64,000 bases of DNA. Source: Malacoraja senta. Taxonomy: Eukaryota. How positions within the stretch are numbered: position 1 is the first letter of the stretch; each line of letters opens with the position of its first letter. The stretch is taken from the NCBI GenBank assembly GCA_038087875.1, contig CM075987.1:19780001-19844000 (forward strand), written 5' to 3'. Positions 4,673 through 64,000 of the stretch are shown here, in pieces. The notes under the pieces were generated by a model, which was not told where the DNA came from, searched no databases, and saw only the letters and a list, made by a program, of their open reading frames with translations. The translations under genes were made by a program, and so were the position numbers.

Positions 4673-5305
4673 TTGTGCCCTTATCAGAAACAGTTCAAAT
4701 ATATTTTTGTTGGGTAAAATTTTAACTTGCTATTGATTAGCTATCCAATGAAAACACAATTTTAATGCGTCATTGTGCCTAACTAGCCATTAATGTACTG
4801 CATCCACAAAATAAAGGATCCAAGGGGAAGATTTATACAACTTACTATCCTACTTTCAAAAGTAAATTCAAGGACTTTCCTTGATACCTTCAATAGCAGA
4901 TATTTCAGTGTAGTAGTATTCTTTACCTCATGATGGCATGTCCGCAAAAATTTCTTGAGAGATGACAGATTCTAAATTGGATAACTTTGGAAAATGGGTT
5001 CAGAGATTGTAAACCTTGTTATCACAGTCAGATTTTGCTACAGCAGATTATCTCTTTAAGAACACAGGCTGTTAGCTACTGCGGCTAATGCAATTGACAA
5101 GACATTTAAATTGACAAGCAATCGCATTGATCGATACTTAACTCCATTAAACAATGTAACAAACAGCCTTTAGTATTTTTAGCAGTAACAAAAATAAATT
5201 TTTAGCTGTTAAAAGAACTTTGCATTGGAAAACAACGTCATCTCACGGAGTTTTGATGCAAACAATAGAAGTGAGTTATCTGAAATTATTGAATTTGACA
5301 TTGAG

Positions 5306-5790
5306 GCAGCTCCCCATAGCACAGCGGGTAGTGCCACGGCTTCACAATGCTAGAGACCTGGGGTCAATCCTGAACTCAGGTGCTATCTGTGTGGAGCTTG
5401 CACATACTCTCTGTGACAGCGTGGGTTCCCACATCCCAAAGACTTGTGGATTGGTAGATTCGCTGTTGCGAATTGCCCCTTGTATAGGTGAGTGGTAGCA
5501 TCTGGGGGAATTGATAACAAACTGGAGACAAAATCTTGGATTAGATTAGTGTAAGATTAGTGTAAATATGTAGTGGATGGTCAGCATGGACTCGGTGGGC
5601 GAAAGGGCCAGTTTCCATAAATAGAAGTGATAGTGACATTTAAGAGGCTTTTTGACAGGCACATGGATATGCAAGGAATAGAGGGATATAAATCATGTGA
5701 AATCAGATGAAGATTAGTTTATGTTGGCATATGTTTAACGCAGACATTGTGGGCAGATGGGCCTGTACGTGTGCTACACTTTTCTATGTT
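5306..5790 (+). mobile_element. V-SINE (HE1-like) plus CR1 3' tail, inserted into a Penelope fragment
   Basis: tRNA-like head GCACAGCGGGTAG...GGGGTCAATCCTG and V-domain; flanked by near-duplicate CATTGAG (5299-5305) / CAATGAG (5791-5797). Confidence 0.7.
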
Positions 5791-5796
5791 CAATGA

Positions 5797-6170
5797 GTTG
5801 TGAAGACAACATCTCAAGATGGAAGATGAGCTACTGTGCCTCAAGTTTTCGGTAGGTTGCATGGATTGGTTTTAAAGACCGTAGAGAAATGGGTGAGAGC
5901 AGATTGGAACATTAAAGTGACAGACAACTGGGAGCTCAAGATTACTCTTGTAGACTGAATGGAAGTGATCTGCAAAGTGATCACCCAATCTATATTTGAC
6001 TTCTCCAGCGTGGAAGAAACTACATTGTGAGGACTGAATGCTGTACACTAGATTGGAACAAGTGCAAGTGAATCACTCCTTCACCTGGAAGGACTATTTA
6101 AGCCCCTGGATGGTGGGAAATAACAACATAAAAGCGAAAAAGTATTGCATCTGTCACAGTTGCAAGGGCC
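5797..6170 (-). mobile_element. Penelope-like element GIY-YIG endonuclease fragment (pseudogenised)
   Basis: Minus-strand translation FTCTCSNLVYSIQSSQC..HAGEVKYRLGDHFADH..SV....LPVVCHFN fits the PLE GIY-YIG pattern; continues at ~5200-5300 beyond the SINE insertion. Confidence 0.8.
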
Positions 6171-6346
6171 TATGCTGTGACAATGTTAGTGGTGGGTGAA
6201 GGCGGAAGAACACACATAAGGCGAGTTGCAAAAGCCAAAATAAATATGTATTAATCTTCCACTGATTACTTTGCCATTGAGCCATTTAGAATGGCATAAT
6301 ACTATATTGCCAATATATATTTAGATGGTCATACTCTGCATTAATT

Positions 6347-6478
6347 TCTGAAGAAGGGTCTCGACCCGAAACATCACCCATTCCTTCTCTCCAGAGATGC
6401 TGCCTGTCCCGCTCAGTTACTCCAGCTTTTTGTGTCTATCATCGGTTTAAACCAGCATCTGCCGTTCCTTCCTATACA
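6347..6478 (+). mobile_element. Penelope-like element 3' terminal piece with hammerhead-like motif
   Basis: CTGAAGA-A-GGGT-CTCG-ACCC-GAAAC at 6348-6373 followed by the terminal repeat seen at many sites in the window. Confidence 0.75.
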
Positions 6479-8303
6479 AGTGTATTTTCTTAGGTAGAAG
6501 AAGCAATATTGCATCTTTCATATGGTTGCCTTCTTCTGAACATTTTACTGCAAGGTACTGCACTACGTAATTCTTAAATCTTCAGTCCCCTTGCAAGGCC
6601 AGAGGTCCATTTCACAACTTGCAATCAACCCATCTACTAACGTCTGAGGTCTCCCAAGTTGATCAGAGGCTTGGCCCCAGTTCACTGCAACTCAACTTAT
6701 TAGTATAATGAGTTTGTGTTAATTTCCATAATAGAAACCATTTGCTCCCCCAGGATATCCTTCCTAGTTTGAAAGAATAAACCTATAGGACCAAGGTATT
6801 GTACATGAAATATCAAAAGAGTTGAATGTTGCTGAATAAGCTCCTATTTTTCAGACAACATTTTGTACTTTGAATATTTCTACAAACATAATATAACTAT
6901 TGATCATGTCATACCAACTGACATCTTTCACCAATAACCATTACTATTTAATTCTCAAAGTGATAAAAGCAAATATAAAATGATCTATATTCTGTATATA
7001 TAATAGGTTAGAGGAACTAAGTAACCTTTTTGGTTTAAAATCTGAATGCAAAACATAACCAAAGGGAATATTGTAGCAACTGGTTTCATAACACCTATTC
7101 ATGTGCTACAAAACAGCATGCCAACTATAACTTGTTTTTCTATTCCCATTTCTCTTTTGAATCCTCTCCATAAAAGGGATGTACCCTTTGCACATAATGC
7201 GCACAGCTTATCATCTAGACTTTCTTTCCAGTCATGTCATCAATTTTCAAAGATTGATGCACTTGTAAAAACTTATTTGAAAGATTGAACATATCCGGAT
7301 AACTACTGAAAATTTGAATGAGCTTGAATTTTGTGATCCTCCAACATTTATTTATGAGAACACCATTCCAGGACTACATCCACTTTATACTTGGCAATCA
7401 GTTTAATTTCTATAATTGGTAAAGAACTGGACATTTGGTAAAGCTTGCATATTTTCAATTTATCATAGTGAAATGCAACTGTTTTGTTGAAGACTACGGC
7501 ATTAAGTTCAAGTTAGAAGGCTGTACATATTTATTTATGTAATGGAATAAAAAAGGATTTGAAGAAATTAAAGAACTGCATTTTATTCACACGAGCCAGC
7601 AATGCTACCTAATTACTGAAGGCTGGGTTACAATGGGGGACATTTACTTTACGGTATAAAAATCGTGTGAATATTTATTTTTGCAAAAACTGACCTGTGA
7701 ATCAATTTACACTGCTATTTGTTAAGTGACATTTTTTAATAAATATAAAACCCTTATCTTATTTAAAATTTTATTTTTAATTACAAATATTGATATACAG
7801 AAAAACGTGCACGTACTTCTGAAATTGTGATTCTTGAAAGGTTGACTTGTTAATATCCTGTTCCAAGGACAGAAGGTCAGGAACAATGACAAGCAGTGTT
7901 GAGACTGTTTGCTCACTTTTTTTTTAAATTAGTGATGATTTCCGCTGGGTCCAAGTTGAACAGCGTAAATCCAAAGTCAAAATGTAGCGGAAAGAATACT
8001 GTGCCAATATGTATAAGGGAGAGGGCTGAATAGAGATAGAAAGGTACAGAATGAATAGCAAATGAAGTGATGATAAAGAATCAACCAGCTTACTCATTAA
8101 ATCTATAGATAATCAACATTTAGCTATTACCTAGGATGATCAAGTGCTGGAATATATTCAGAATCATTTGATTGCAAATCAAAAATGAGCTACTTTGACG
8201 TTCAATGAGACATTGATAATGCAATGTGAGAATATTGTTTTGCATTTGGGTATTGTAATTCACAAGGAAATTGATGCTAAAAACTGTGTTCAGAAAAAAA
8301 ATA

Positions 8304-8872
8304 CAATGAACTCTCATTTTAACGGGTCTCTTTAACGGATTTTGGTAATAACGGACTGCCCACGCCACTCCCGGCTCGCGCCGCTTCCCCTGCTGACAGT
8401 GCCGGCTGCTTTTGCTCGCAGCCTCAGCCACATACACCACCCCCGGCTGCTCGCAGCACTGGTTGCCCTTGTGCCGCTCCCCGGCCGCTTCAGTGCCTGC
8501 TGCTCTCGCGCCACCTCCCTGGCTGCTCACAGCTTCAGCTTCCCACACTGCCTCCCCAGCCATTTGCAACCCTGGGTGCCATGTCATCCCCGACTTGTGC
8601 CATCTCCCCAGCTGCTTGCAGTGCCGGCTGTCCATGCCACCCCCAGCTCAAGCCACTTCCAGGCTCGACCTATGGCCTCCACTGTCTGTCCACACTGCCT
8701 CCTCGACCGCCTCAAGCTACGCCTGCCACGGCCACCACCACCGCCGACTTTACCTGCAGTCCAGCCGCCCGCAGGCTGCGACCATTGACTCTGCCGAAGC
8801 TCGTTTCTCCCCAGCTGCCAGCAGGCCAGGGTTGTCAACCCGCCTGGATTCCAGGTCAAATTCAGGACCGAG
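8304..8872. mobile_element. GC-rich insert, possibly a truncated pogo/Tigger-like non-autonomous element
   Basis: Abrupt GC rise; starts TA|CAATGAACTCTC with three TAACGG subterminal repeats; C-rich low-complexity interior; no right TIR seen. Confidence 0.35.
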
Positions 8873-9030
8873 AGTCTGAAGCAGAATCTTGACCCAAAGC
8901 GTCACCTATCCATGTTCTCCAGAGATGCTGCCTGACCTCTGAGTTACTCCATCCCTTTTGTGTCATTTTGTGTATTAAGTACAGCATCCATCTGCACTGT
9001 GCGCTCAGGCAGATAAAATGGAGGAGCCAA

Positions 9031-11358
9031 ATGAGAGCATACTGGGGGGAGAGCAAACTCACTGCCCCTGTTGATAAGATCTTATCAAGATCAATAGAAA
9101 TAATCTCCCTAATTCTTAAAAAGGAGAAAGATCCCCTGCTTTGTAGTAGCTATAGACCAAGCTCACTCCTGAATGTGGACCTCAAAATCCTTTCTAAAAC
9201 CCTTGCGCTTCGTCTTCAACGAGTGATGCCCTCTATTATCTCGTTAGATCAAACAGGGTTTATACCTGGCCGACAGTCTTCCCATAATACTAGGCATCTC
9301 CTTAACATCATTCACTCTTCGAGTAATGAGACCCCGGAGATGGTGGTCTCCCTCGATGCCGAAAAGGCCTTCGACAGGGTCGAGTGGAGGTACCTATATG
9401 AGGCGATGGATAGGTTTGGCCTCGGTAACAGTTTTATTCTCTGGGTCAGCCTATTATATTCGTCCCCGGTGGCCTCAGTACAAACAAACGACATACTGTC
9501 GCCCCACTTCACACTTCAGAGAGGTACCAGACAGGGTTGCCCGTTATCTCCACTCTTGTTTGATGTCGCGATAGAACCCCTGGCCGTCTGGTTACGGGCA
9601 GAGAAGGGCTTTAAAGGTATTACACGGTTTGACACAACTCATAAAGTCTCATTGTATGCGGATGACCTGCTCCTGTACATCTCGAACCCAGTCAGTTCTC
9701 TCCCTGTGATTATGAATATTTTAGAACGGATTGGTGCATTTTCTGGTTATAAACTCAACTACCAAAAGAGTGAGCTATTACCGATTAACTTACCGGCTAA
9801 GCAGCTCCCTCGCTCTTTAACCTCATTCAAATGGGCAGAGGATGGGCTCCGCTATCTCGGCGTTTTTATCACAATACCCTTATCTGATATGTTCCGCACA
9901 AACTTTTTGCCTCTGGTTGAGAAAGCCGAAAAAGATTTTGACCGCTGGTCAGTTTTACCGCTATCCCTCGTGGGCCGGATAAATCTGGTTAAGATGGTTG
10001 TCCTACCCAAATTCCAGTATCTTTTCCAGCATGTCCCCATACTTATCACTAAATCTTTTTTTGATAAATTAGAAAGGACAATATCTAAATTTTTATGGGG
10101 TAGCAAACCGGTCAGAATCCGAAAGGCGATACTGCAGTCGCCTAAGAGTGATGGCGGTTTGGCCCTCCCTGATTTTAGGCGATACTATTGGGCAGCTAAC
10201 TTGCAAAAACTCCTATATTGGATGAATGATGATTGCGACCACCCACCGATCTGGGTATATATGGAAAAGGCGAGTTCACGTCTCCCGTTGCGGTCTGTCC
10301 TATGCTCCCAACTCCCCCTTTCTATAACATCTGTGGGTGCAGGCCCAATTGTGTCGCTTTCGCTCAAGATATGGAGTCAATTTAGGAAAAATCTCGGTTT
10401 ACAGGGTCCTTCCATCTTGACCCCACTGCTTAAAAATCACATTTTTAAACCTTCAAGTATAGACCACGCATTTAAAACTTGGCATAGCAATGGCATCAGT
10501 AGTATCAAAAACCTATACAAGGATGGCATCTTCTCGTCTTTCGCGGAGCTCTCGTCTAACTACAACCTCCCAAACTCCCACCTTTTTCGGTTTTTCCAGA
10601 TTAGGGATTTTGTGAAGAAGACATTTCCCTACTTCCCAAATCGCCCTCCTGAAACCCTGACTGATATCATCTTAGCTTTAGACCCCAACCGGAAGAAATG
10701 CATCTCTATTTTGTATAATTTGCTAGGGTCGGTTTTATTGAAACCTCATACCTCATTAAAAGCTGCGTGGGAGGGAGAGGTGAATACGAAATTAACAGAC
10801 CAGCAATGGGACTCTGCCTTGGATTTGATCCATTCTTCTTCCATATGTGCTCGTCATGGCCTAATCCAATGCAAAGTCCTTTACAAAGTCCACTACACAA
10901 ATGCAAGATTAGCTAGAATGTACCCAGCTGTTAATGACACCTGCAACAGATGTAATCAATCTCCCGCCAACCATAGCCATATGTTTTGGTCTTGCCCTAA
11001 GCTAGCAACCTTTTGTAGGAGTGTTTTCGAATTGATAAGCAGAGCTTACGACCAGACTATTCTTCCAAATCCAATGTCAGCCATTTTCGGTACCCCTCCC
11101 AATACCAACCTCTCTGTTGCGGTGAAACGTGTCCTAGCTTTTACAACCTTGTTAGCCCGGAGACTGATCTTGCTTAGTTGGAGGCTTACCTGTCCCCCGA
11201 CACACGCCCATTGGATTAAGGAGGTGCTTTACAATCTGAAACTTGAAAAACTTAGGTTCTCTCTCAAAGGCTCTACCAAGACATTCCTAGATACATGGAA
11301 CCCTTTCTTTGAACTGGTTAACTCTCTTAACTTGTCCCCGGACTCGGAAGAGGACTGA
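9031..11358 (+). CDS. L1 ORF2 remnant: reverse transcriptase plus CCHC-like C-terminal domain, no endonuclease
   Basis: Uninterrupted frame with YRPxSLLNVDLKIL, DQTGF, SLDAEKAFDRVEW, GTRQGCPLSPLLF, YADD, RYLG and CNRC-x8-HMFWSC; first in-frame ATG (9031) lies in flanking DNA; expression unknown. Confidence 0.85.
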   Translation: MRAYWGESKLTAPVDKILSRSIEIISLILKKEKDPLLCSSYRPSSLLNVDLKILSKTLALRLQRVMPSIISLDQTGFIPGRQSSHNTRHLLNIIHSSSNETPEMVVSLDAEKAFDRVEWRYLYEAMDRFGLGNSFILWVSLLYSSPVASVQTNDILSPHFTLQRGTRQGCPLSPLLFDVAIEPLAVWLRAEKGFKGITRFDTTHKVSLYADDLLLYISNPVSSLPVIMNILERIGAFSGYKLNYQKSELLPINLPAKQLPRSLTSFKWAEDGLRYLGVFITIPLSDMFRTNFLPLVEKAEKDFDRWSVLPLSLVGRINLVKMVVLPKFQYLFQHVPILITKSFFDKLERTISKFLWGSKPVRIRKAILQSPKSDGGLALPDFRRYYWAANLQKLLYWMNDDCDHPPIWVYMEKASSRLPLRSVLCSQLPLSITSVGAGPIVSLSLKIWSQFRKNLGLQGPSILTPLLKNHIFKPSSIDHAFKTWHSNGISSIKNLYKDGIFSSFAELSSNYNLPNSHLFRFFQIRDFVKKTFPYFPNRPPETLTDIILALDPNRKKCISILYNLLGSVLLKPHTSLKAAWEGEVNTKLTDQQWDSALDLIHSSSICARHGLIQCKVLYKVHYTNARLARMYPAVNDTCNRCNQSPANHSHMFWSCPKLATFCRSVFELISRAYDQTILPNPMSAIFGTPPNTNLSVAVKRVLAFTTLLARRLILLSWRLTCPPTHAHWIKEVLYNLKLEKLRFSLKGSTKTFLDTWNPFFELVNSLNLSPDSEED

Positions 11359-22504: not shown

Positions 22505-23225
22505 ACACAAAACTGTAGCTGGTAGAACCAGGAGTGATAAATAAACTGCTGGAAGAACTTCGCAGGCCAAACAACATCTATGGAGGCAAAGGGATGGTAG
22601 ACATTCTGGTTGAGACCCTGTATCAAGATGAGGTGTAGAAGGAAGATAGCTGGTATATAGAATTGAGAAGGAGGGGTGAGACAGGCTGGGAGGTGATGGT
22701 GCAAGCAGATTGTGGAGCAGGGTGGGGAATGATGAGCAGATGGAGTCAGATTGGTGAGGGAGAGTGTTGAGTCAGAGGCTGGTAGAGTGACAGATGGAAA
22801 CATAGGAAAAGAGAAATAAGGGAGTTGAGATGACGAACATTGAACATTCCAGTTGCATATCATTTCAACTTCGCTTCTCAATCATACACCAACTTGTCTG
22901 TCCTTGGCCTTTTTCACAGTCCCACTCGCAAACTGGAGAAACAGTATATAATTTTCTGCTTGGGTATGTCAATGTCAGGTGGCCCGCCCATTTTGTGGTC
23001 CTTTCCCTCTCCGACCAGTCCACTCAGTGTCATCTCCTATATTCACCCTTTTCACCTCCTCCCTCGTTATCTGGATTGATCACCCTCCCCCACCTGATTT
23101 CATCTGCCCAACACATACTTATATATCTGAGTTTCTTCTCCATTGGTTCTCCTTTCCTATCCTTTCCCCCCACCTGATTTCCTCTGCCTGTCATCTCACC
23201 CTTATCTGGTTTCATGTATCACCCA
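22505..23225. mobile_element. Penelope-like element remnant with inverted terminal segment
   Basis: + strand 22845-22965 encodes PVAYHFN..SVLGL...RKLEKQYIIFCLG (GIY-YIG C-terminus) followed by a pyrimidine-rich UTR; 22505-22830 is the UTR/terminus in the opposite orientation. Confidence 0.75.
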
Positions 23226-25724
23226 AGAATGAAGGACCTTCCCATCATCGAAGGGATATACAGGAAGTGTTGCCTCAAGAAGGCAGCTAATATCACTAAA
23301 GACCCACACACCCTGCCCACACTCTCATCTCACTGCAACCACTAAGAAGAACGTTCAGGAGCCTGAGAACTATTATCTCTACATTCAACCATTAGGCTAT
23401 TGAACCACAATGTACGACCTTAACCACAACTGTACATCAGTCCCCAACTACTATGGACTTTGTATAAGAGTTACACAATGTACTTTGGCTTGAAATGTTA
23501 TGATCTCGTTTCCTAATATAACTGACAATTTATTGTTTATTGTATATTTTACGTTCCCTCGCTCAACTCTTGCCTAGCTCCATCTGCCACTATTAAAAAC
23601 AATTCTTCTTATGTTTCTACCTATCACCTACCAGCCTTTACCTCGCCCTTCCCTCTCACTTCTATATACTGGCTATCTTCCCTTTACACTCTCAGCACTT
23701 ATGAAAGGTTTTCACCTGAAACATCGACCATCCCAGTGTCACTGCTGTTGCTGCCTGACCTGCTGAGTTCTCCCAGTTGTTTATTTTTTGCTTACAACGA
23801 CTAACTTGACACTGCTATCTCATTACTATTAGTAATTTGTAGACACAAGAGGCTACAGATGTTGGAATCTTTTGCAAAAAAACTTAGGAGGAACTCGGCA
23901 AGTCAGGCAGCTTCTGTCACTACAATGAGTTAATGTATTTACGAGAACATTTGTAAAACATTCATTATAATGAAACTGACCATAAAAATGCTTTTAGTTA
24001 ACTATTTGAATATACTTAATTCTAATGTTGCTGAATATAATTTTTCAGAAGTTAGTTTTGGGACCCCAATTCTACTTCTTTTCCATCAGAATATAAGCAA
24101 AAGATGGTGAGAGCATTTGTGTTGTTTTTTCCCTCAACTGCATTGAAGTAAAACATTTATGCAATATTGCATACTGTAGATGTAACTACTCCATGCCTGC
24201 AGCTGGAACATTTTTCCATTTTTTGGTTTGACTGCATTTATTAGGATTATCCTCTGTTTTGGGTGCAAGTTGGGTGAACTTTAAGCTGACAATGAGAATT
24301 TCTGGTTACTGGCAAATGTTCAATTTAGCACACAATGAAAATGTGTTTGAGATTCCCTTCAAAGGCTGCTCCCTTGTTTATGGGAGAGTAGATAAAAAAA
24401 AGTGCGAAAGAGTAAATGCCAAGGACCAAGAATGGACTCCTACAGTAATACTTCCATATAGGGCAGATAGACTCTGGTACATTAAGGGCCACACACCTAT
24501 TGTTAAATAAGAAAGAAATCTGGATCAGGACTGTCAGCTCTGCATATGAATTTGTAATTTGGATCAATCTCAAAGGTTTAGAAATCAGAAATACTCTCAA
24601 CCTTAATTCTGCTTATTCTCTCAAGGTTACAGCAGAAGACTTTGGCAACAAAATCCATGGGTTCTCCTGCATTTGCCTGCTCACCAATACCATCTTCATA
24701 ACAGCTCAGGATTTAATCTATTTTTTTATGGTTCCAACACAGCAGCAGGACACAGTTCTATCCTGTGGCTTGTCCCACCAAAACCCAGTGCAGTAGTTAG
24801 CATACACATAGTCGGCCTGTTTAGTTAAACCATTGGATTTTTCTGGTCCAAACACACTCTATCAAAATAATTGGTGACCAAATACAATTGATTTCTTTTG
24901 GAGATGATTTATAGAATGAAAGTGGGGCACGCAAGCTATTTCAGTGCCCTTTAACTGAGGTATTTATTTGGATAATTAAAGGATAGTATAAATTAACCTG
25001 CTTTTTATTATCTGCATACTGTGTGCTAGTAATATTTGAAAATACATTAAGGCAGTCGATAAGGGCCTGTATCTCATGCCCTCACTCGACCTCTCCATTG
25101 CTTCTGATTTGCAATGCTGTTTGACCACATCCAACACTCTGCTGCCTATTGTCCTATGCAAAATTATCCATCTGATCTTTCAGCCTAATCTCACTCATAG
25201 ATGCAAAACTTTCAATGTAGGATCCTCATACTTTTGTTTAACTCTCCTCAAGGCCCGAGCTATTTCCCATCTCTGTAGATCTTTTGAGTGTATTTTTCTA
25301 ACTTATTTTGCATTTCAGTTTCCATGTCTGCATTGATAACTGTCATTAGCTGCTTAAGTCCAATGCCCTGGAATCATATTTCTACACCTCTCATTATTTT
25401 TAAGATACATCTTAAAACCTAATTTTTTGATCAAACTAGATAAAGTGTCCTGATTCACATGACTTGAAATCAGATTCTCTCTGTTCTATTACAGGCATTG
25501 AGTATCAAACTGAAAAAAAACCAGAATTAGACCTGATGCCGAGTGTTGGGTAAAAGTTCATTGGAGTGGGTTATGATGCTAACTGAAAACATTATTTTAA
25601 AAAGGTGTGAAGTGCTAGCACTCACCTTTTTGTAATCTTGTATTACCTTAGAATCAAGAGATTTTTACTTTGTGTTGGACAAAATGCATTTGTGTGTAAT
25701 TTTGCCAAGCACACTGAATAAGCA

Positions 25725-25946
25725 CAAAATGCTGCAGTAAGTCAGCCAGTCAGGCAGCATCTCTGTAGAAAACGAATAGGTGACGTTTTGGGTCGAAACC
25801 CTTCTTGATACTGGGTTCCGAGGAGTTTTGACCCAAAACATCACCTATTGCTTTTCTCCAGAGATGTTGATTGACCCGCTGAGTTACTCTAGCATTTTGT
25901 GTCTATCTTAGGTGTAAATCAGCATCTGCAGTTCCTTCTTAAACAA
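25725..25946. mobile_element. Penelope-derived inverted-repeat (hairpin) insert
   Basis: Two arms in opposite orientation; direct repeat TGAATAAGCA at 25715-25724 and 25947-25956. Confidence 0.75.
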
Positions 25947-26422: not shown

Positions 26423-26529
26423 ATGTTCAAGAAGTCTGAAGAAGGGTTTCGGCTCAAAACGTTGCCTATTTCCTTCGCTCCATAGATGCTGCCGCACCCG
26501 CTGAGTTTCTCCAGCATTTTTGTCTACCT
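26423..26529 (+). mobile_element. Short Penelope-derived insert within a CR1 3' end (CR1 ~26095-26600, +)
   Basis: TSD GAGATTAGTTTAG (26410-26422) / GAGATAAGTTTAG (26530-26542); hammerhead-like core at its 5' end. Confidence 0.75.
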
Positions 26530-26602
26530 GAGATAAGTTTAGCTTGGCATTCTGTGCAGATTTTGTGGACCTATTCCTGTGCAGTACTTTTCTATGCTCT
26601 GT

Positions 26603-27500
26603 AAGCCCAGTCCATCCATTCTTTCATCATATGTCAGTCCCGCCACCCCTGGAATTATTCTGGTGAACCTACGCTGCACTCCCTCAATAGCAAGAATGTC
26701 CTTCCTCAAATTAGGAGACTAAATCTGCACACAATACTCCAGGTGTGGTCTCACAAGGGCCCTGTACAACTGGAGTAGGACCTCCTTGCTCCTATACTTA
26801 AATCCTCTTGCTATGAAGGCCAACATGCCATTTGCATTCCTCACTGCCTGCTGTACTTTCAGTGACTGATATACAAGGACACCCAGGTCTCATTGCACCT
26901 CCCCTTTTCCCAATCTGACACCATTCAGATAAAAATCTGCCTTCTTGTTCTTGCCACAGAAGTGGTTAACCTCACATTCATCCACATAACACTGCATCTG
27001 CCATGCATCTGCCCACTCACCCAACCTATCCAAGTCACCCTGCAGCCTCATAGCATCCTCCTCGCAGCTCACACTACCACCCAGCGTGGTGTCATCTGCA
27101 AATTTGTAGATATTACATTTAATTCCTTTGTCTAAAACATTAATATATATTGTAAATAACTGGGGTCCCAGCACTGAGCTTTGTGGCACCCCACTAGTCA
27201 CCGCCTGCCATTCTGAAAAGGACCCATTAATTCCTACTCTTTGCTTACTGTCTGCCAACCAGTTCTCTATCCATGTCAATACCCTACCCCCAATACCACG
27301 TGCTCTAATTTTGCACACTAATTTCTTGTGTGGAATCTTGTCAAAGGCATTTTGAAAGTCAATACAACACATCCACTGGTTCTCCCTTATCTATACTACT
27401 TGTTACATCCTCAAAAAATTCCAGGAGATTAGTCAAGGATGATTTCCCCTTCATAAATCCATGCTGACTTTGACCAATCCAATCATTGCTTTCCAAATTT
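26603..27500 (-). mobile_element. CR1/HER1-like LINE RT fragment
   Basis: DFQNAFDKIPH, WLADSKQRV, VTSGVPQSSVLGPQLF, KFADDT, LQGDLDRL motifs. Confidence 0.9.
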
Positions 27501-49686: not shown

Positions 49687-49990
49687 AAGTGTAGGAAGGA
49701 ACTGCAGATGCTGGTTTAAACCAATGATAGACATAAGATGCTGGAGTAACTCAGCGGGACAAGCAGCATCTCTGGAGAGAAGGAATGGGTGACGTTTTGG
49801 GCCGAGACCCTTCTTCAGACTGATGTCAGGGGAGGGAGATACATAGATAAGGAAGTATAAAGTGTGAAAATAGGACAAAGGGAATGGAAATCAAGGAAAA
49901 TGTAGTATAGATCATTGTTAGTTGGGAGAACAACAAAGCAAACAGATAAAATATAGTCAGTCTTACTGTCTCTGACTACATTTTATCTCT
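49687..49990 (-). mobile_element. Penelope-like element 3' end with hammerhead-like motif
   Basis: Reverse complement CTGAAGAAGGGTCTCGGCCCAAAACGTCACC plus terminal repeat and UTR. Confidence 0.7.
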
Positions 49991-52589: not shown

Positions 52590-54970
52590 ACATCACTGGA
52601 GCAATATCAGTAGACTGGGTGATGTTCAAGGACTTGGCAATGGAACTGAAAAAATGCTACAGGTGTAACCAACTTCATATGGAAATGTGTGGAGGAGTAT
52701 GTTCCCACCAAGACCATCCAAAGTTTCCCTAATCAGAAGTCATGGACGAACCAGAAAGTCTGCAATCTACCGAGGATGAGATATCTGACATTCAAATCTG
52801 GCAATACAGGGTCATATATGAAGTTCAGGCACAACCTCGAGAAAACCATTGAGGAAGCAAAGAGACTCGCTTGGTCTAAACTGGAAAATCAGATGTTTTC
52901 GGCAGCTGCACACGGCTTGCATGCCATTACTTCCTATAAAGTGAAATCACGCAGTAGCTTAAGTAACAGAGATGCATTACTCCTGGATAAGCTCAGTCCT
53001 TTGGTCACTTTGAAAGGGTGATCATCGATGTACCTTCTCAGGCCCCCATGGTCCCCGACTATACTGTATTCTGAGTCACCAAGGACGTGTCAGAAGATCC
53101 TTCATGAAGATAAACCCTCAGAACGCGACCAGCCCCAATTATATATCTAACTTGTTCTTAAAACCCACATGGACCATTTGGCTGGTGCTTTTGTTTCTCG
53201 CTGCTGACATACAAAGTCCCCAACTGTTTCACTACAATGACTACTGACCAATAGCACTTGCTCAGTAGTGATGATGTGCTTTGAGAGGTTGAATATAACA
53301 CATATCAACTCCTACCTTAATGAGGTCCTGGACCCACCACAATTTGCCTACCATCACAACCAATCAGGGGCGGAAAACCCTGGGGGGCCAGAAGGGACAC
53401 GTCCCCCCCATGTTTTGAGAGGTGAGGGACATCCCCCCTAAGATTTTGTCATCCGGATTTTAAAATCTCCGCTTTCCGCGAGACAGTGGAGGTGGGACTG
53501 CTGATTGGACGAGAGAGACGTCGGTCAGCAGGCAATGGGACCGGGACATGATGATTCAGCACGATGATTGGAGGAGGGAGGAGTGGGGGGGGTGAGACTG
53601 AGGATAGAGTTGAGCTGCATTTAGCACTGGATTGAGCCTCCGAAGCCTTGCGCATGTGTGTGCGGGTGTGCGCATGCGCGCGCGGCAGCCAAAAAATTGT
53701 GTCCCCTGTCCCCCGGTCCCCTCCATGTTTTGATAGCGAGTTCCGTGCCTGCAACCAATCAACAGGAGATGTGATCTTGCTCACTCTCCACTCTGCTCTG
53801 GAGCACTTGGACCCAAATAACATGCACATCAAGCAGTTGTTCATTGACCACAGTTCAGTATTCAACACCAAGTTTAAGTATTAAACTTAACATCAGACTT
53901 GGGGAACTGGGTCAAAACTTCTGCAGAAGGGTCCTGACCTGAAACATCACCCATCCTTTTTCTCCAGAGATGCTGCCTGAGTTACTCCAGCACTTTGTGT
54001 CTATCTTTGTATAAACCTACATCTGTAGTTCTTTGTTTCTAACACTTCCTCCTAGATGACCATCAACAAAGGAGCACTTTATGATAATGCTCTGCTCTCT
54101 CTATACCCATTAATGTGTAGACTCGACTCGACTCCAAAACCATCTTTACAATTGTCGCTATATCACCATTTGTAGGATGAATAACAGGTAACAAGAAATC
54201 AGAGTACAGGAAGGAGATTGATAATCTGATTGAATGGAAACAGAACCACAATTTTGCTCTCACTGTTACCAAGACCAAGGAGCTGATTTATGGTTTCAGG
54301 AAAGGAAGGTCTGTCTACATCGATGGCAGTGAAGAGAGTCAAAAGATCTGTCATGGGCTAGCACACTGAAAGCCCTTCAATGCCTCTACTTCCTTAGAAG
54401 AGTGAGGAGATTTAGTATGTCGGCAAATTATCAAACCAACAGGTATACGGTAGAGAGCATATTGACTGGTTGCATCATAGCCTGGTTCAGTAACTTGAAT
54501 AGCCAGAAATGAAGGGAGCTGCAGTAAGTGGTAGACATTGCCTGGCCTACCACAAGTACTGGCCTCCCCACCATCTAAGCCACCTACAGGAGGCACCGCC
54601 TCAAAAAAACAGTTAACATCATCAAAGACTTAGACCACCCAGACCACGCTGTCATCTCGTTATTTCAATCGGCAAGAAGGTACAGAAGGCAGAAAACTGA
54701 TACGTTCAGGTTCATCCCACCAGGCATCAGCCTCTTGAGCACTACACGACACTAACCACAACTTTACCTCAGCAATAATGATCTACTATGGACTTTGTTT
54801 TGGGTGCACTATATATTTCGGTTTAGCATTATTATTTTCTCGTTAATTTGACTGATTATTAATTTATCATTTTACTAATTGTGTGCTACTGCATTAATGG
54901 GTTTGTAAAGTTGCAGCAAGAAAGAATTTAATTGTTCCGTTGCTGGTACATATGACAAATACTCTTGACA
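52590..54970 (+). mobile_element. Degenerate Rex-Babar LINE with nested inserts
   Basis: VPTKTIQSFPNQKSW, MCFERL, LDPPQFAY, LHSALEHLD..LFIDHSSVFNT, EYRKEIDNLIEW...KTKELI; 3' tail. Confidence 0.8.
53365..53751. mobile_element. hAT-type MITE
   Basis: Perfect 8-bp TSD CAACCAAT (53357-53364, 53752-53759); imperfect TIR CAGGGGCGGAA / CAGGCACGGAA; subterminal GGGAC/GTCCC repeats. Confidence 0.88.
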
Positions 54971-55053: not shown

Positions 55054-57867
55054 CAATGCCCTCCATAATGTTTGGGACAAAGACCCATCATTTATTTATT
55101 CGCCTCTGTATTCCACAATTTGAGATTTGAGGCCATTGTTATACATTTTGGTTTCACCATGTAGAAATTACAGCAGTGTTTATACATAGTCCCCCCATTT
55201 CAGGGCACCATAATGTTTGGGCCACATGGCTTCATAGGTGTTTGTAATTGCTCGGGTGCGTAATAATTGCCTCCTTAATGCAGGTATAAGCGAGCTCTCA
55301 GCACCTAGTCTTTCCTCCAGTCTTTCCATCACCTTTGGAAACTTTTATTGCTGTTTATCAACATGAGGACCAAAGTTGTGCCAATGAAAGTCAAAGAAGC
55401 CATTATGAGACTGAGAAACAAGAATAAAACCAGCCAAACCTTAGGCTTACCAAAATCTACTGTTTGGAACATCATTAAGTAGAAACACTCTTCATTAGCA
55501 CTATTTTCTCGTTAGTTTGAAGAAACACTCTTCATTAGTACTATTATAATCTCGTGGATTTGTCAATGACCACTGTCCGCAGAAGACTTCATGAACAGAA
55601 ATACAGAGGCTATGCTGCAAGATGCAAACCACTGGTTAGCCGCAAAAATAGGATGGCCAGGTTACAGTTTGCCAAGAGGTAGTTAAAAGAGCAACCACAG
55701 TTCTGGAAAAAGGCCTTGTGGACAGATGATATGAAGATTAACTTATATCAGAGTGATGGCAAGAGCAAAGTATGGAGGAGAGAAGGAGCTGCCCAAGATC
55801 CAAAGCATACCACCTCATCTGTGAAACACGGTGGTGGGGTTGTTATGGCCTGGAGGTACTGGCTCATTTATCTTCATTGATGATACAACTGCTGATGGTA
55901 GGAGCATAATGAATTCTGAAGTGTATAGACGCATCCTATCTGCTCAAGTTCAAACAAATGCCTCAAAACTCATTGGCCGGTGGTTCATTCTACAGCAAGA
56001 CAATGATCCCAAACATACTGCTAAAGCAACAAAGGAGTTTTTCAAAGCTAAGAAATGGTGAATTCTTTTTTTTAAATATTTATTTTATTAGAAGCAATTG
56101 TACAAGGAGAAAGTAATCAACATAACAATTATACAATTTTCGTACAGCTTCAGTTTTAACATTTTATAAACTAATAGGTAAATCGGAAAAAAGAAAAAAG
56201 GAAAGAACGGAAAGGAAGAAGAAAGGAAAAAGAAAAGAAAGAATTTAGAAAAAGATACAAAAAAGAAAAAAGAAAAACCCCTGAACTAACGAAGAAGTGA
56301 AAAGAAAAGCGGAGATATATCCCACTACCCTTCCCTATGCCCGCTCACCCGGCCCTAGCGTCGGTTTTGAATTTGTGTTCAACCATTGTGTTGTTGAAGA
56401 AATTCAATGAAAGGAGACCATATTTTGGAAAATTAATCTGATTTGTCAAACAAAACAAGCCTTATTTTTTCTAAATGTAGTGTCTCGGTCATTTCTGTGA
56501 TCCACATCTTCACTGTGGTAACTGTTATCTTTTTCCAGAATTTAAGTATAATTTTTTTCGCAGTTATTAAACCATAATCAAGGAAACATCTTTGGAATAT
56601 CGTTAACTTAGGGCAGCCCTCTGACATTCCTAATATTAATTTTGAATCTGACTCCAATTGAATTTTGAGTGTTTTAGAAATGGTATTGAATATTCCCGTC
56701 CAGAAGTTTTGTATTTTTATACAGGATATACAAAAGAATGGGTTAGGGTAGCTTCTTGGAAGTTACATTTATCACAGAGGGGGGAGACAGTTGGGAAGAT
56801 CTTGTTCAGTTTGGTCTTTGAGTAGTATAACCTATGCAATACTTTGAATTGTATAAGGCAACGCCTGGCATTTAAAGAACAGTAATGTAGGCTTTCCTCA
56901 CATATATCTTTTGAAATGGGTAAACCCAGCTCGTCCTCCCATGTTCGCCTATAAATCTCAGAAGGTGGGGTGTCAATATTTAGAAGAGTGTTATAAATGT
57001 AAGATATCAACTTACTTGTATCGGCATGTCTATTCAAACAATCGTCTAATATATCTGGGCCCACAAAAGAACAGTCTTGTGTATATGTTTTCACATAATC
57101 TAGAATTTGAAGGTATCTAAAAAAATTGTTGGCGTTCAAGTGATATTTCTCCTGTAGTTCTCGAAAAGAAGAGAGAGTCCCCTTCTTATAGAGGTCTCCC
57201 ACAGTATTGATTCCCAGGTTCTTCCATTGAACAAACACCATATCTAAAGTAGACGGTTTAAATGAGGGATTGTTTGCAATAGGAAGAAGGAGAGACACGT
57301 TTCTCAATTTAAGACTGAATTTCAGCTGTTTCCAGATACGGATAGTACTATGTATTATCGGATTTTGCAAAAAATTGTCAATTCTTGAGTGGCCAAGTCA
57401 ATCACCCGATTTGAACCCAATTGAGCATGCCTTTTATATGCTGAAGAGAAAACTGAAGGGGACAAGCCCCCAAAATAAGCATAAGCTAAAGATAGCTGCA
57501 ATACAGGCAATGGCAGAGGATCACCAGAGAAGACACCCAGCAACTGGTTATGTCCATGAATCGCAGACTTCAAGCAGTCATTGCATGCAAATGATATGCA
57601 ACAAAATACTAAACATGACTACTTTAATTTACATGACACTGCTGCATCCCAAACTTTATGGTGCCCTGAAATGGGGGGACTATATATAAACACTGCTGTA
57701 ATTTCTACATGGTGAAACCCAAATGTATAAAAATGGCCTTTATTAAAATCTGACAATGTGCACTTTAACCACATGTGATCTTTTTCTATTACAAATCTAA
57801 AATTGTGGAATACAGGGGCAAATAATTAAATAAAGGGTCTTTGTCCCAAACATTATGGAGGGCACTG
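55054..57867 (+). mobile_element. Tc1-family DNA transposon with long IR/DR-type termini; transposase pseudogene
   Basis: TA TSDs; outer TIR CA(A/G)TGCCCTCCATAATGTTTGGGACAAAGACCC; inner repeat at ~55201-55222 and ~57647-57668; transposase motifs MRTKVVP, WTDD, VKHGGG, LQQDNDPKHTA, EWPSQSPDLNPIEH. Confidence 0.95.
56068..57371 (-). mobile_element. 5'-truncated L1 inserted into the Tc1 transposase gene
   Basis: ORF2 C-terminus (NPIIHSTIRIW, LIQFKVLHRLY, CDKC..LTHSF); poly-A on minus strand; 15-bp TSD AAATGGTGAATTCTT (56053-56067) / AAATTGTCAATTCTT (57372-57386). Confidence 0.92.
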
Positions 57868-58639
57868 TATACACAAAAAATTGGACTAACTCAGCGGGTC
57901 AGGCAGCATCTCTGGAGAATATGGATATGTACGTTTTGGGTTGGAACGCTTCTTCAGACTGAAGAAAGGTCCCAACCCAAAATGTCACCAATCCAGTTTC
58001 TCCAGAGACGTTGCCTGACCCAGTGAATTACTCCAGTATTTTGTGTCTATCCTCTGTTTATTGAATACCCATTGCTTTTAATGAATGCAAGTTTATCTAT
58101 AGGAATTTCCTTAATTAACTGTGCACATGTCTATATACACTGTGTGCATTTCATTACCAAATAACCAGCCAATCCGAGCAAGAAAGCATCCTTTAAAGGG
58201 ACGTAATGTGTCAGGCAGAATCTGTGGAAAAAGAGGGACAGTTGTCGTTTCGAGTCAAGACCCAGTCCAGGTGCAGTCTCTTGACCCTTGTTCCACCCCA
58301 TTGCCTCCACAGCTGCTACCTGATCTGCTGAGATTCCCCTAGCGATCTTTTTTTGCTCTGGATTACAGAATTTTCAGAACCGCGTTCTGACTTTGGCTAC
58401 ATAATTGTTTATCCCTTGTCAAGTAAAAATGATATTTCAAAAATACTTTATGCAATCCAATTTCAATTCTAAAGGAAATTGAAAGTGTGTGTATTGGGGA
58501 ATATTACATCTTTATTAAGTACCTTCAGAAATATTACCAAGCTAAATAAAAGTGCCTGTAGGAATATCTCAATTCTGTTTATATGTTTTTGTTTCATATC
58601 CTGATACCTTTATTTTGCAGTTTTCGTCTTGAACATTTT

Positions 58640-59130: not shown

Positions 59131-59485
59131 GGGATCTCAATTGCAGGATGAATAACAGCAGCATAAATATTGCAGAAAAACATTTACTCTTGTTATTTGT
59201 AATTAGCAAAGGTCAGAAAACATTGATTTCTGGGAGTGTGAAACACAATAGGCAATTGGAGTTGAGATATATCTGTTAAGTTCTAATTAAATGTCCAAGA
59301 TGAGACCAACTGACTTAGCATAGACTTGGAAGCAAGTTTGCAATGTCCTCTGTATAGCTTAGCAGTTGTAATTGTGTTGTTAAATCATATCCATGAAGTA
59401 TTATCTTAGTAACCATCATTTGTTTCTCAATACAGATCTAAGGTACACTGCAGTTCACTTGTCCCATGTAGGGACGTGATTTGTT

Positions 59486-59714
59486 AAAGAAGGAACTGCA
59501 GATGCTGGAAAATCGAAGGTACACAAAAATGCTGGAGAAACTCAGCGGGTGCAGCAGCATCTATGGAGCGAAGGAAACGGGCAACGTTTTGGGCCGAAAC
59601 CCTTCTTCAGACGGGTTTCATCTGAAGAAGGGTTTCGGCCCGAAACGTTGCCTGTTTCCTTCACTCCATAGATGCTGCTGCACCCGCTGAGTTTCTCCAG
59701 CATTTTTGTGTACC
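59486..59714. mobile_element. Young Penelope-derived hairpin insert
   Basis: 95-bp inverted arms (59517-59611 / 59621-59715, 3 mismatches); 17-bp TSD TAGGGACGTGATTTGTT at 59469-59485 and 59715-59731. Confidence 0.88.
59622..59649 (+). ncRNA. Minimal hammerhead-ribozyme-like motif (PLE type)
   Basis: CUGAAGA-A-[GGGU-UUCG-GCCC]-GAAAC-GUU with palindromic AACGUU in place of stem III. Confidence 0.6.
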
Positions 59715-61119
59715 TAGGGACGTGATTTGTTTGGTTTACAGGAAACAGACAAGTATGAGATCTGAAATTGGGTTGGCAGATTGCTTGACATAATTGTGGT
59801 TGAGAGGGAAGTCCAACATTCAGCAAGCAGTTGAGATGGAGGCTAAAAATCCAGGGAGTGGGAGCACGTCGGGCAATCTGACCCATTTCAGTGGGGCCTG
59901 AATTTGCAAAATGTACAATTTCTCCAAAATGCTATTTTTGTTGGGTTTCGGTTGTGCCTTTAATCTAAATTTCCCCTACTCTATACTCCCTATCTCCCCC
60001 CCACCCACCCACCACTCACACATGGGTGCACATGCAGATATAGGGGGGTTCTGCAGGCTTACTGTATTATTTTAATTTATATTTTATATAGCTCAATAGG
60101 TTCATCCCTTTATCCTCCAAACCTTAGGCAACACAAGGAGTTTAAGTGTTTCGTGCTCAGAATTCTACCCTTTAACCTTGCTATCATTCTAATAAAATCA
60201 ATCATTATCTTTCTTGAGCTCATATTTATTCTTAGTAAGGTAAAGATGAATATCAAGTGCAAGGTTGACACCTGAAAAGGGAGATAAACTGACTTATTAT
60301 CCTAAATATCAAATATTTACCATTTGATTCACTTCAGTGTATTAACAGCACAGAGACTGACATTTAGTCCCTTTAATTAACTTATGTCCCACAACCTCAT
60401 ATGGTTATTATCCAATGAAAACTCTTTTCATTGAGCATAGAACAATACAACACAGGAATAGGCCCTTTGGCCCTCAATGCCAAATATGAGGCCATTAAAC
60501 TAACCTCCTCTGCCTACACATGATCCATAACCATCCATTCCCTGCCTATCCATGAGTCTCTGAAATATTATTATCGTATCTGCCTCCACCACCAGCTCAT
60601 TCCAGGCACCACCCTCTGTGCAAAAAAAAAAGAATTGCCCTGCAAATCTCCTTTAAACGTTGTCCCTCTCGCCTTGTGCCCACCAGTCATTGACGTTTCC
60701 TCTATGGGAAAAAGATTTTGACCATACATGCCTCTCATAATTTTATATACTGCTATCAGGTCTCCCCTCGGCCTCCAAATCTTCGCAGAAAACAATCCAA
60801 GTTGAGCCGTTGGGCAATTTCTACTTAAACTTAAAAAAGAAGCACACAATAAATATCTAATATAATAGTGCTGGTTTATACCAAAGATAGACACAAAGTA
60901 CTGGAGTAACTCAGCGGGTCAGGCAGTATCTGTAGAGTAAATGTATAGGTGATTTTTTTTGGGTCCGGACCCTTCTTGGGAGAGTGGGGAAGAAACCGTA
61001 ATATATAATGCAGGACACTAATTGAACCTGCAAAAAATAGATTATTGCAGGATCATTTAGTGTATATGTACACTTAATACATATTTAGTACACAAAATAC
61101 ATATACACTAGATATAAAA

Positions 61120-61620: not shown

Positions 61621-61878
61621 TAGAACAAAATTTAATGTACAATTAGGCAGCATAACTAGAAAGACAGATGAAATTATTGATATCATTGTCTAGTCTAGAA
61701 GTCTAGTGAGTTCAGTTTTTTAAGTTTGCATGAATGCCAAAAGACTTCACCTATCTTGATAGATATCAGAAAATTATAGAAACCTAACAACAAGACCAGG
61801 TCAATCTGAACTTCATGTCTGATTCATCATTTGATTAGATCGTGACTGATCTGATTTGTGCCTCATATTTTTCTGATT

Positions 61879-62008
61879 GTTAAAGAAGGAACTGCAGATG
61901 CTGGAAAATCGAAGGTACACAAAAATGCTGGAGATACTCAGCGGGTGCAGCAGCATCTATGGAGCGAAGGAAATAGGCAACGTTTCGGGCCGAAACCCTT
62001 CTTCAGAC
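61879..62008 (-). mobile_element. Young Penelope-derived short insert with intact hammerhead-like motif (61978-62006)
   Basis: 10-bp TSD TTTTCTGATT (61869-61878, 62009-62018); near-identical to the left arm at 59486-59611. Confidence 0.85.
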
Positions 62009-64000
62009 TTTTCTGATTCGCTGCCCATAACTGAATCTTCAAATGGGCTTTGACTTAGATGACATATCACCATTTTTGGATTCCAGCCTCTCAGGATATG
62101 TGCCAATATTATTAAGTTTTTGATTATTCATGTTGGAGTTTGGTGATGCATACATCTGAAATGATAATACTGAAATGATCGAGATCTTAATCAGCCCTTA
62201 GTTATGAATAGTGCGCTCAAGTTTTTTAAAATAACAGAAATATTTAAAACTGGAAGTGGAACAGAGTATAAGCTGGAGTGTTAGTAGTAGACGACTGAAT
62301 TATAAGGAAATACTTGAACATTCGGAATATTTAATGTTGAAGACATGACATTGTTGAATAGGAAAAATGAGTAATCAAAAAAATTGATAAGTTAGTATTC
62401 GAGCATTATTTAAAATTAAATTGATTACAGGAGAGGAAGTGTAGAGTGGTAAAAGGCAAATGTTTGTTGCTGTCAGGAGATGCATTGTTTTAGAAAAATA
62501 ATTAATATATGTCATCTTTCAGGAGAATAGTGTAGGCAAAACTATAGTATGGAAAACAGATGGACTTTTGTAAAGTAGAGTGTTAGGTACAATTCTTATT
62601 TCTACTGCCAATAGTTAAATATTGCAACTGCTGGAAATCTGAAGCAAAATCTGAAAATTATGAACTGTCTTTAAGTCAGGCAGCACTGGTTGAGAGGACA
62701 GAAGTTAATATTTCCATTACAGAACTGCAGTTCTTAGAAATGCATGGTATTATATATGAACAATATTTTTTTTGAAACAGAAGATGGTAAAGGTGGGAGG
62801 GGGCAAAGCCATTATGAACACATCAAAAGATGGTAAAGAATGCTCAAGAAGCAGAGGTAGCAAATTGACAAAAGCGAGTACACGTATAATGGAAAACAAT
62901 GGCATGCATTAAACATTTTAAGGAAATGGAAAGTGTGAAAGTAACTGAAGAAGGAAAGTAGAATAGGAAATTTGACATAAGCAATGAAGTGGATTCCCAG
63001 TGGAAGAAAATAAAATAGCAAGTTGATTCCAAGGAAATGCATTTTACCAGCATAAACTGATTGGGATATTACCCCGATCCCAAGCACAATCCCATGTTCG
63101 GCATAATTTCCTTCTCTCTCGCATTCCCGGGGATGCTGCTATGTTTGCACTTTAAAATAGAACATACATGCAGTCCCTGGGTTATGTAAATTTTCCATTC
63201 CTGAGAACTGTCCGTTTTTTCATGTCAGAAAGAGCAATTCCAAAAAAGGTCAATTAACATGAACATTTCTTTATTGTCATTCCTGTGTAGTTACAATGGT
63301 ACAGAATTAGAATGTCTGACATCTAGTGGCTAGTTTCCATGACATAAATGTATTAATGAATGTTTCATTGTTTGCAAAATTATTTAACAATTATCAATAG
63401 AGAAGTTTGCCTTATCAGTTTCCAAAGTAAATCTCTTAAATGGGCTCCTGCTATGAATCAGCACCTGCGTTCTCAACAGATAATGGTGCCTGTTTGATTA
63501 CTGCGGGAATGTTACACGACTGGTTGTCTTTTGAATTATTTAGCTGCTACCTGTATTCCATTACTGCTGTAGTTGTTTGCATACCTGTGACGAACTTTCC
63601 TATTCCAAAAACTATTTAAAGAATGATGGAAGAATTTGCGTAAAGCCAGATTTCCATGTCAAGGCTTCTGTTATCTAGCAGTTCCTGACTGGCTGGAGTA
63701 AAATGATAATTAAAGTTATGATGTGGTATAGATATCTGTATTATGGCCTGACCAAAATTAGCTGAGTGTTTAATAGAAAGGAGAATGCTGTGTTTTAAGT
63801 GCCTTGCATTTCATGTATAAAGTACAGAACATGTTTGGTCATGGACAATAACTTGTACTGATTTCTTTAACATCTGTTTTATCAAGCATTTCTGAATTAA
63901 AATTCAATACTGGAAACATTAATATGTTCCGTTGAAAAAGTCTAATTCCAGAGTGTTACCCTTGTTTCTGTTTTTTATTTCAAGAGTGTAATTGTCAGCA

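Follow-up and report, generated by a model that had tools for sequence, protein, structure and literature searches.

A hammerhead-bearing hairpin insert in Malacoraja senta as a probable truncated copy of the 3' end of a Penelope-like element

Introduction

Penelope-like elements (PLEs) of the canonical, endonuclease-bearing (EN+) kind encode a reverse transcriptase (RT) followed by a C-terminal GIY-YIG domain, carry a DKG motif, and are found as tandems sharing pseudo-long terminal repeats (pLTRs), as inverted truncated copies and with a tail on one side only, as set out in the available part of one source (PMC8557442). The same part attributes a CX4CX2C-type linker to the Neptune and Nematis clades, gives inverted 5'-truncated copies and a one-sided tail of 30-40 bp as typical of PLEs, and places the transcription start site of Penelope within the pLTR. 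Here we describe short repeated units with a hammerhead-ribozyme-like motif, and above all a hairpin insert built from two of them and flanked by a target-site duplication (TSD), at positions 59469..59731 of a 64,000-nucleotide stretch of the Malacoraja senta genome (GenBank assembly GCA_038087875.1, contig CM075987.1, positions 19,780,001 to 19,844,000; the whole stretch is called the window), and we relate these units to a PLE of the same genome.

Metazoan PLEs are known to carry a minimal hammerhead ribozyme (min-HHR). Its published definition, in the sections of PMC4209133 on which we draw, comprises the catalytic boxes CUGANGA...GAAA with a UH cleavage triplet, an unpaired nucleotide between A9 and position 10.1, a conserved G10.1-C11.1 pair, and the absence of loop 3, with a palindromic 15.2-16.2 that allows a dimeric helix III. 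According to the same sections, min-HHR pairs lie on opposite strands, 100-700 bp apart, and show low in vitro activity as dimers.

Two further systems are close enough for comparison. For the Anolis PLE PAc, the accessible part of PMC11167929 reports that RT starts at two internal sites, that the tail is the stretch between them, that the PAc protein cleaves and extends both target strands, and that hammerhead mutants still insert; such internal initiation has so far been shown only in vitro and for this one lizard element. Retrozymes, as characterized in the portion of PMC7229834 used here, are tandem repeats with canonical type I hammerheads, loop-loop contacts and circular RNAs, and a preprint, in the part we cite, derives animal retrozymes, as non-autonomous PLE derivatives, from PLE pLTRs (10.64898/2026.07.22.740005).

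Results

Our data indicate that the hairpin insert and its relatives are, with high probability, copies of the RNA module that forms the 3' end of a canonical EN+ PLE, and were dead on arrival. A preliminary description, made from the letters alone, had called the insert a TSD-flanked hairpin. This holds, as a perfect 17-nt direct repeat surrounds two inverted arms of 95 nt (59517-59611 and 59621-59715) that are 97% complementary and lie 9 nt apart; it has to be amended in that the arms are unequal and the hammerhead core of the left arm is decayed (G12 -> A). The insert is composed as follows.

59469-59485, unstranded: left TSD copy of 17 nt, TAGGGACGTGATTTGTT, 100% identical to the right copy
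59482-59611, minus strand: tailed arm, a full ~130-nt PLE 3' unit (BLAST with unit 1-130, 96.9%)
59612-59620, unstranded: spacer of 9 nt, CGGGTTTCA, resembling part of stem II
59621-59715, plus strand: untailed arm, unit positions 1-95, ending in ...GTGTACCT (motif and repeat search, BLAST)
59715-59731, unstranded: right TSD copy of 17 nt, TAGGGACGTGATTTGTT, a perfect direct repeat

The left arm, with a full unit and a ~35-nt tail, is longer than the right, so that the hairpin is asymmetric. It is made up of a min-hammerhead (59583-59611), a body and the tail at about 59482-59516; its decayed core reads CCCAAAAC, and 59583-59610 has one mismatch to the 28-mer of our motif search. The hammerhead core of the untailed arm (59621-59649) is intact. 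At the left junction, the last 4 nt of the TSD (TGTT) overlap the terminal AACA of the unit, forming a microhomology.

The repeated unit of ~130 nt starts with (G)TCTGAAGA and finishes in ...GCAGTTCCTTCTTTAACA. We searched the window's own assembly of 1.94 Gb, which holds many near-identical copies, and in 11 of the 30 best genomic copies the similarity extends upstream of TCTGAAGA into a 3' untranslated region (3'UTR) and an open reading frame (ORF). The encoded protein has a KPADKGG (DKG) motif, YIDD, a CX4CX2C linker and LIYIGET...AEH (GIY-YIG); its C terminus is ...NIEFSQFC, and the stop codon lies about 125 nt before the unit. These upstream extensions, together with the existence of full-length copies, bear out the expectation that the repeat is contiguous with a PLE RT/GIY-YIG ORF. 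In Pfam, the 647-aa protein matches RVT_1 (E 1e-6) and GIY-YIG (E 7.7e-4); it speaks against the assignment that both scores fall just below the curated cut-offs (29.1 versus 29.6 for RVT_1 and 20.1 versus 22.6 for GIY-YIG). Among solved structures, no match was found for the protein.

A full-length copy of ~4 kb occupies positions 4476-8463 of locus L062, locus L063 is a partial tandem copy, and in L064 a PLE copy is preceded by an inverted, truncated copy of 994 nt and a partial upstream repeat (pLTR). The full copy in L062 starts, at its 5' end, with ~27 nt that are the final part of the tail, and continues from there without a break; the tail is thus where the next unit of a tandem begins. 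With a DNA probe covering the stretch around DKG, in the 5' part of the RT region, 2,298 candidates were obtained, and since the 40 that were scored are 98-100% identical, the PLE family is very young. Judged from sequence, the short units appear to be truncated tail-end copies of a canonical EN+ PLE with RT, CX4CX2C linker and GIY-YIG, belonging to a family that is evidently abundant and recently active.

Two observations on the family are added here. Upstream of the RT, the PLE has in its 5' part (about 519-811 in L034 and about 5150-5650 in L062) a variable run of GC-rich repeats, which read as proline-rich peptides (PGPPNIAA-like) and differ in number between copies. Loci L001 (contig C4994) and L003 (C5:1.61 Mb) have identical hairpin copies with identical flanks, pointing either to a recent segmental duplication or to one locus assembled twice; they are counted as one where so stated.

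The 3'-terminal module is made up of the hammerhead (positions 1-29), a conserved ~65-nt body and an optional ~35-nt tail, and its copies stop at either of two 3' termini, unit ~95 or ~130. An exact search of the genome for the 30-mer of unit 66-95 gives 18,660 occurrences, with the tail following in 7,078 of them (38%). Both termini recur in the full-length copies, L063 and L065 ending at ~96-100 and L062 and L064 at ~128-130. They recur again in our RNA data, a single raw poly(A) RNA run from a related organism, where the loose ends of reads aligned on L062 lie at 8427-8429 (1,098 reads) and 8463 (553 reads), equivalent to unit ~95 and ~130.

Among the 108 unit hits from the ~300 kb examined, there are 17 head-to-head pairs; in 14 of these, one arm is tailed and the other ends at unit 41-103, in 11 of those 14 at 83-103 (hand reading). 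Their axes fall into two classes, one at unit ~1 with spacers of 0-15 nt and one in the near-palindromic stem II. Such pairs fit the picture given for PAc in the cited sections of PMC11167929, with two start sites and both strands extended. By analogy with PAc, the two termini (~95 and ~130) would be the element's two internal RT start sites, and the hairpin may have formed in one insertion event, in which a cDNA started at ~130 gave the tailed arm, a second cDNA started at ~95 gave the inverted arm, either primed on the second target strand after its cleavage or copied by folding back, and the two were joined at the hammerhead's 5' edge, resulting in one 17-bp TSD. A point against this scenario is that the data fit either origin of the inverted arm and do not separate second-strand priming from fold-back copying.

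An apparent arm-specific rule at unit position 73 (A in the tailed and T in the untailed arm, in 8/8 hairpins) was a query artefact and has been discarded; among exact copies genome-wide, the A form occurs 23 times and the T form 18,660 times. At C1:9923381-9923446, two untailed units lie tail to tail (plus, then minus), their 3' ends 6 nt apart, which is the opposite arrangement to the head-to-head hairpins.

With arms of 95 nt at 97%, the insert would fold into a long perfect hairpin, as expected if the host had co-opted it to give rise to miRNA- or siRNA-like small RNAs. Rfam models of miRNA precursors do match at a permissive threshold, but the best match reaches 45.4 bits against a gathering score of 81 bits, and the matches, all far below gathering scores, fall on both strands, as is usual for any long hairpin. 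Furthermore, about 300 kb contain 17 such pairs, and 8 are present among the first 100 listed matches to unit 66-95 (hand count), and because the pairs differ in spacers and ages they look like insertion by-products. We consider a small-RNA function of the hairpin highly improbable and retain its reading as PLE 3' ends.

The hammerhead, unit positions 1-29, consists of CUGAAGA, an unpaired A, a 4-bp helix II, GAAA and a palindromic, loop-less helix III (ACGU), with predicted cleavage expected after GUU or GUC. It had been taken for a Penelope-type minimal hammerhead, and the published PLE min-HHR hallmarks fit. In an alignment of 57 distinct copies (A1), the catalytic boxes and the UH triplet are as published; the unpaired A after A9 stands in column 13; and G10.1-C11.1 (columns 14/25) is G-C in 48/57 rows. 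The palindrome previously noticed in place of stem III is ACGU, with A-U in 51/57 rows, C15.2-G16.2 in 43/57 and no loop 3. An extra A and a weak stem I had together been thought to make activity uncertain. The unpaired A is a hallmark in the part of PMC4209133 used here and is therefore not a defect. Helix I has just two pairs, one of U2.1 with the G or A of position 1.1 and one of G2.2 with C1.2. At unit position 30, which directly follows the predicted cleavage site, both A and G occur, and either can pair with U2.1. Decayed copies mostly carry the CpG change G12 -> A, and in solo or inverted copies the hammerhead is not expected to cleave.

Several results weigh against the hammerhead assignment. 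Helix I has only 2 bp where the min-HHR definition has 4-5 bp. The suggested search with hammerhead models drew a blank, with no Rfam hammerhead match at gathering scores and, for two copies, none at E up to 10; these models expect a closed helix III. The predicted minimum free energy folds (monomer -9.4, dimer -29.8) differ from the hammerhead fold, for which the dimer reaches -15.7. Likewise, the covariation score of 0.189 versus 0.184 for shuffles, with 163/500 shuffles as high, gives the proposed covariation no support, although these 57 mostly dead copies, in which 89% of cells pair and only 1 pair shows a both-sided change, are a weak test either way. That stem II varies while keeping its pairing is not upheld, since we see only a one-sided U.G/U-A change and no statistical covariation.

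The comparison of core with flanks, which had also been proposed, came out mixed. Between subfamilies A and B, the latter studied solely from copies within the ~300 kb examined, identity in a gapped alignment of majority lines is 25/29 in the hammerhead, 51/67 in the body and 24/37 in the tail, and a direct reading of two units shows the 29-nt hammerhead to differ at three positions, one in the loop, one in the U.G/U-A pair and one at H17. Conservation is somewhat higher in the core than in the flanks, but other blocks, AGATGCTGC, CCCGCTGAGT and CCAGCATCTGCAGTTCC, are kept equally well.

The units also share a 5' boundary at the hammerhead. Exact hammerhead 29-mers number 17,786 genome-wide, only 7,004 (39%) with CTATCAG upstream, so that ~10,800 are without this PLE 7-mer. 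The 80 unselected hits comprise 25 hairpin arms, 19 long copies, and 19, 8 and 9 hits that end at positions 1-3, at 4-12 and beyond 12, respectively; position -1 is G in 16/25 short copies (hand count, A1 alignment). The stretch TCAGTCT across the boundary has what we take to be a resemblance to an initiator element. Only 1-2 of the 108 hits begin near the cleavage site (unit 28-35), which implies that cleaved RNA is rarely a template and agrees with the in vitro behavior of PAc as given in the sections cited (PMC11167929).

We envisage that the PLE RNA has its 5' end near the hammerhead and that initiation at 5'-proximal start sites would yield run-off cDNAs of ~95 and ~130 nt. This combination of an RNA 5' end at the boundary with 5'-proximal RT initiation is the reading we prefer, at roughly even chances, the alternative being that the RT stops or switches at the hammerhead. 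Two findings tell against an RNA start at the boundary: some copies begin at -5 (L011 and L024), and the RNA reads from the related organism show no pile-up of read starts. A point against the wider reading of the short units as PLE 3' ends is that the A30 variant is rarer in non-long copies, being present in 22/42 long versus 12/58 non-long copies of the first 10.78 Mb of C1 (hand cross-tabulation), so that the sources of the non-long copies are a biased subset of the family.

A splice acceptor at this place, suggested by the pyrimidine tract and CAG before the core in long copies, was considered and rejected, as the short copies share no upstream exon; the RNA run contributes no read to any of the 15 joints listed (out of 303), and the loose ends there look like diverged 3'UTR.

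On L062, the RNA reads cover the PLE ORF at 8-207 reads per bin with a strand bias, and the unit at about 1,000-1,900, equally on both strands. Of 8,767 aligned reads, 7,940 match only in part, and 87% of what aligned continues into unrelated sequence, the picture that units carried as passengers in other transcripts give. The suggested look for RNA ends at the GUH site gave none, as these poly(A) reads show no pile-up of starts or ends at the predicted cleavage site (L062 8362/8363), which in a related organism is a weak test. In contigs of runs X1 and X3, from other organisms, L062 8456-8462 is joined back to 8329 with 24-34 letters between, which resemble the 3'UTR of subfamily B; these joins suggest short direct tandems in those organisms.

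It had further been proposed that the units behave as a retrozyme-like mobile family. In this scenario, the short units would be a separate non-autonomous, retrozyme- or SINE-like (short interspersed element) family, self-transcribed, processed by the hammerhead and copied in trans by the PLE. The abundance of copies without the upstream PLE 7-mer (~10,800/17,786), the sharply defined 5' end of the short units, the lower frequency of A30 in non-long copies (12/58) than in long ones (22/42), and the preprint deriving animal retrozymes from PLEs (10.64898/2026.07.22.740005, in the part cited) would all agree with such a family, as would a TSD-flanked 13-mer array formed elsewhere by an ORF-less derivative of the same PLE. 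However, the short units match the 3' ends of full-length copies and lack the 5' strand of helix I, no short-copy-specific substitution was found among them, and only 1-2/108 hits start near the cleavage site. The RNA reads cover both unit strands equally and extend in 87% of cases into unrelated sequence. Moreover, the motif is of the minimal PLE type, with a 2-bp helix I and no loop 1, and not the canonical type I that defines metazoan retrozymes in the available part of PMC7229834. Finally, direct tandems of short units account for 0/108 hits in the ~300 kb, which makes double self-cleavage and circle formation impossible from these copies, and the window units, being solo or inverted, do not qualify as retrozymes. 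We regard a separate family as unlikely and return to truncated PLE 3' ends as the origin of the short units.

Direct tandems of the retrozyme kind are found only in a separate array outside the window, at C1:28902275-28907430 (L066, L067), with a period of 384 nt. Its monomer joins a tailed unit to two further pieces of about 130 nt each, one from the PLE 5' region and one from the 3'UTR, and is the same PLE with the whole ORF deleted, at 97-100% identity. The deletion junction occurs 13 times in the C1 array and three more times on another contig, in a second small array (C6175:32019-32818). The C1 array is enclosed by an 11-nt direct repeat, TCTTCTAAATC, and ends near the untailed start site, which argues that it was inserted as one multimeric cDNA. 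By its sequence, the array appears to be a genuine but rare retrozyme-like counterpart elsewhere in the genome, and its 13 monomers were possibly produced by rolling-circle copying of a hammerhead-cut circle.

Within the window, the pattern CTGAAGA-N(4-16)-GAAACGT has two matches, 59622(+) and 61980-62006(-), and none in 100 shuffles, and the 28-mer with up to 3 mismatches is found at 26436(+), 49791(-), 59583(-), 59622(+) and 61979(-), with 0 in shuffles. At every place where the preliminary description had reported the recurring motif (CUGAAGA-A-stem II-GAAAC-GUH), a copy is present, and BLAST with two unit variants adds copies at 8875, 12475, 22518, 23698, 25718/25820, 46252, 46630 and 60869. 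The GIY-YIG pieces at 5905-6114 and 22789-23001 likewise substantiate the earlier mention of PLE remnants in the window. These features are listed below.

61878-62007, minus strand: solo tailed unit with intact hammerhead (motif search, BLAST, reading)
26435-26534, plus strand: solo untailed unit, positions 1 to ~95-100, core decayed (GGCTCAAAAC) (motif search, BLAST)
6347-6478, plus strand: solo tailed unit of the older subfamily B, motif GAAACATC (BLAST, reading)
49689-49819, minus strand: subfamily B unit, long form, G12 -> A (motif search, BLAST)
57868-58060, unstranded: second head-to-head pair, old subfamily, without spacer, arms 57868-57958(-) and 57959-58060(+)
25718-25945, unstranded: third head-to-head pair, old subfamily, arms 25718-25806(-, untailed) and 25820-25945(+, tailed)
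53920-54034, plus strand: old decayed solo unit (TCTGCAGAAGGGTCCTGACCTGAAACATC) (BLAST, alignment)
5905-6114, minus strand: PLE GIY-YIG remnant, 53% identity to residues 530-599 of PLE protein P0001, E 9e-18
22789-23001, plus strand: PLE GIY-YIG C-terminus remnant, 42% identity to P0001 residues 574-644, E 1.6e-8

The unit at 61878-62007 has one additional G ahead of TCTGAAGA and is flanked by the direct repeat AATCAGAAAA at about 62009-62018 and 61869-61878. In the subfamily B unit at 6347-6478, stem II is GGGU-CUCG-ACCC and the cleavage triplet has decayed to AUC, as earlier read at 6348(+), the change lying at a CpG. The unit at 49689-49819 extends upstream into a pyrimidine-rich 3'UTR that ends in CAG, and old units lie near the GIY-YIG remnant at 22789-23001, at 22518-22619(-) and 23698-23782(+). 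The window further contains an 821-aa open frame at 8893-11358(+) with RVT_1 (E 1e-35) and zf-RVT, which is LINE-like (long interspersed element) and not a PLE, another RVT_1 fragment at 26890-27390(-), and a weak DDE_3 transposase fragment at 57231-57689(+).

Discussion

The observation that started this work is real, its attribution to Penelope was correct, and it belongs to a known kind. In practical terms, repeats like those of the window should be masked as PLE 3' ends rather than annotated as new ribozyme genes or miRNA hairpins. Furthermore, a young family with about 18,000 exact hammerhead copies is a good natural data set for PLE transposition. It may be used to address where the RT starts (two termini, 38% tailed), how inverted arms are made, why the majority of copies end at the hammerhead, and whether retrozymes originate from PLEs by loss of the ORF (13-mer array).

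Should the template RNA indeed start within a few nucleotides of the core, the ~10,000 short units would be run-off cDNAs from the two 5'-proximal internal RT start sites and thus an in vivo record of internal initiation. Should the array have arisen from a hammerhead-cut circle, it would be a minimal-hammerhead retrozyme seen just after its birth from a PLE. That both are true, with run-off short units and a newborn, ORF-less 384-nt derivative copied as a 13-mer by the same machinery, is conceivable, though we think it rather doubtful.

Compared with the published min-HHRs, as far as the available part of PMC4209133 goes, the hammerhead described here is at the small end. Most animals have a helix I of 4-5 bp, and the length of 2 bp that we find is reported only for a Drosophila virilis variant; helix II, 6-8 bp in several published families, is here 4 bp with a UUCG or CUCG loop. 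With metazoan retrozymes, as portrayed in the cited portion of PMC7229834, the units share that they are non-coding, hammerhead-bearing, PLE-associated and TSD-flanked. They differ in that retrozymes are tandem, whereas the window units are solo or inverted and have a minimal hammerhead without loop-loop contacts.

The comparison with PAc brings out a difference in layout. In PAc, according to the sections of PMC11167929 used here, the start of the ORF falls within the hammerhead and the ORF contains the RT start sites, whereas in the present element the hammerhead and the two termini precede the likely start codon. A boundary at the 5' edge of the hammerhead is not reported in the parts of the PLE papers on which we draw (PMC8557442 and PMC11167929), while ~60% of copies stop there in M. 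senta. In other respects, the element matches the EN+ PLEs portrayed in those same parts. It has RT followed by C-terminal GIY-YIG, a DKG motif, partial tandems and inverted truncated copies (PMC8557442), and it shares with them a tail of ~35 nt on one arm only, two alternative 3' termini, and TSDs of variable length, here 10-17 bp (PMC8557442 and PMC11167929).

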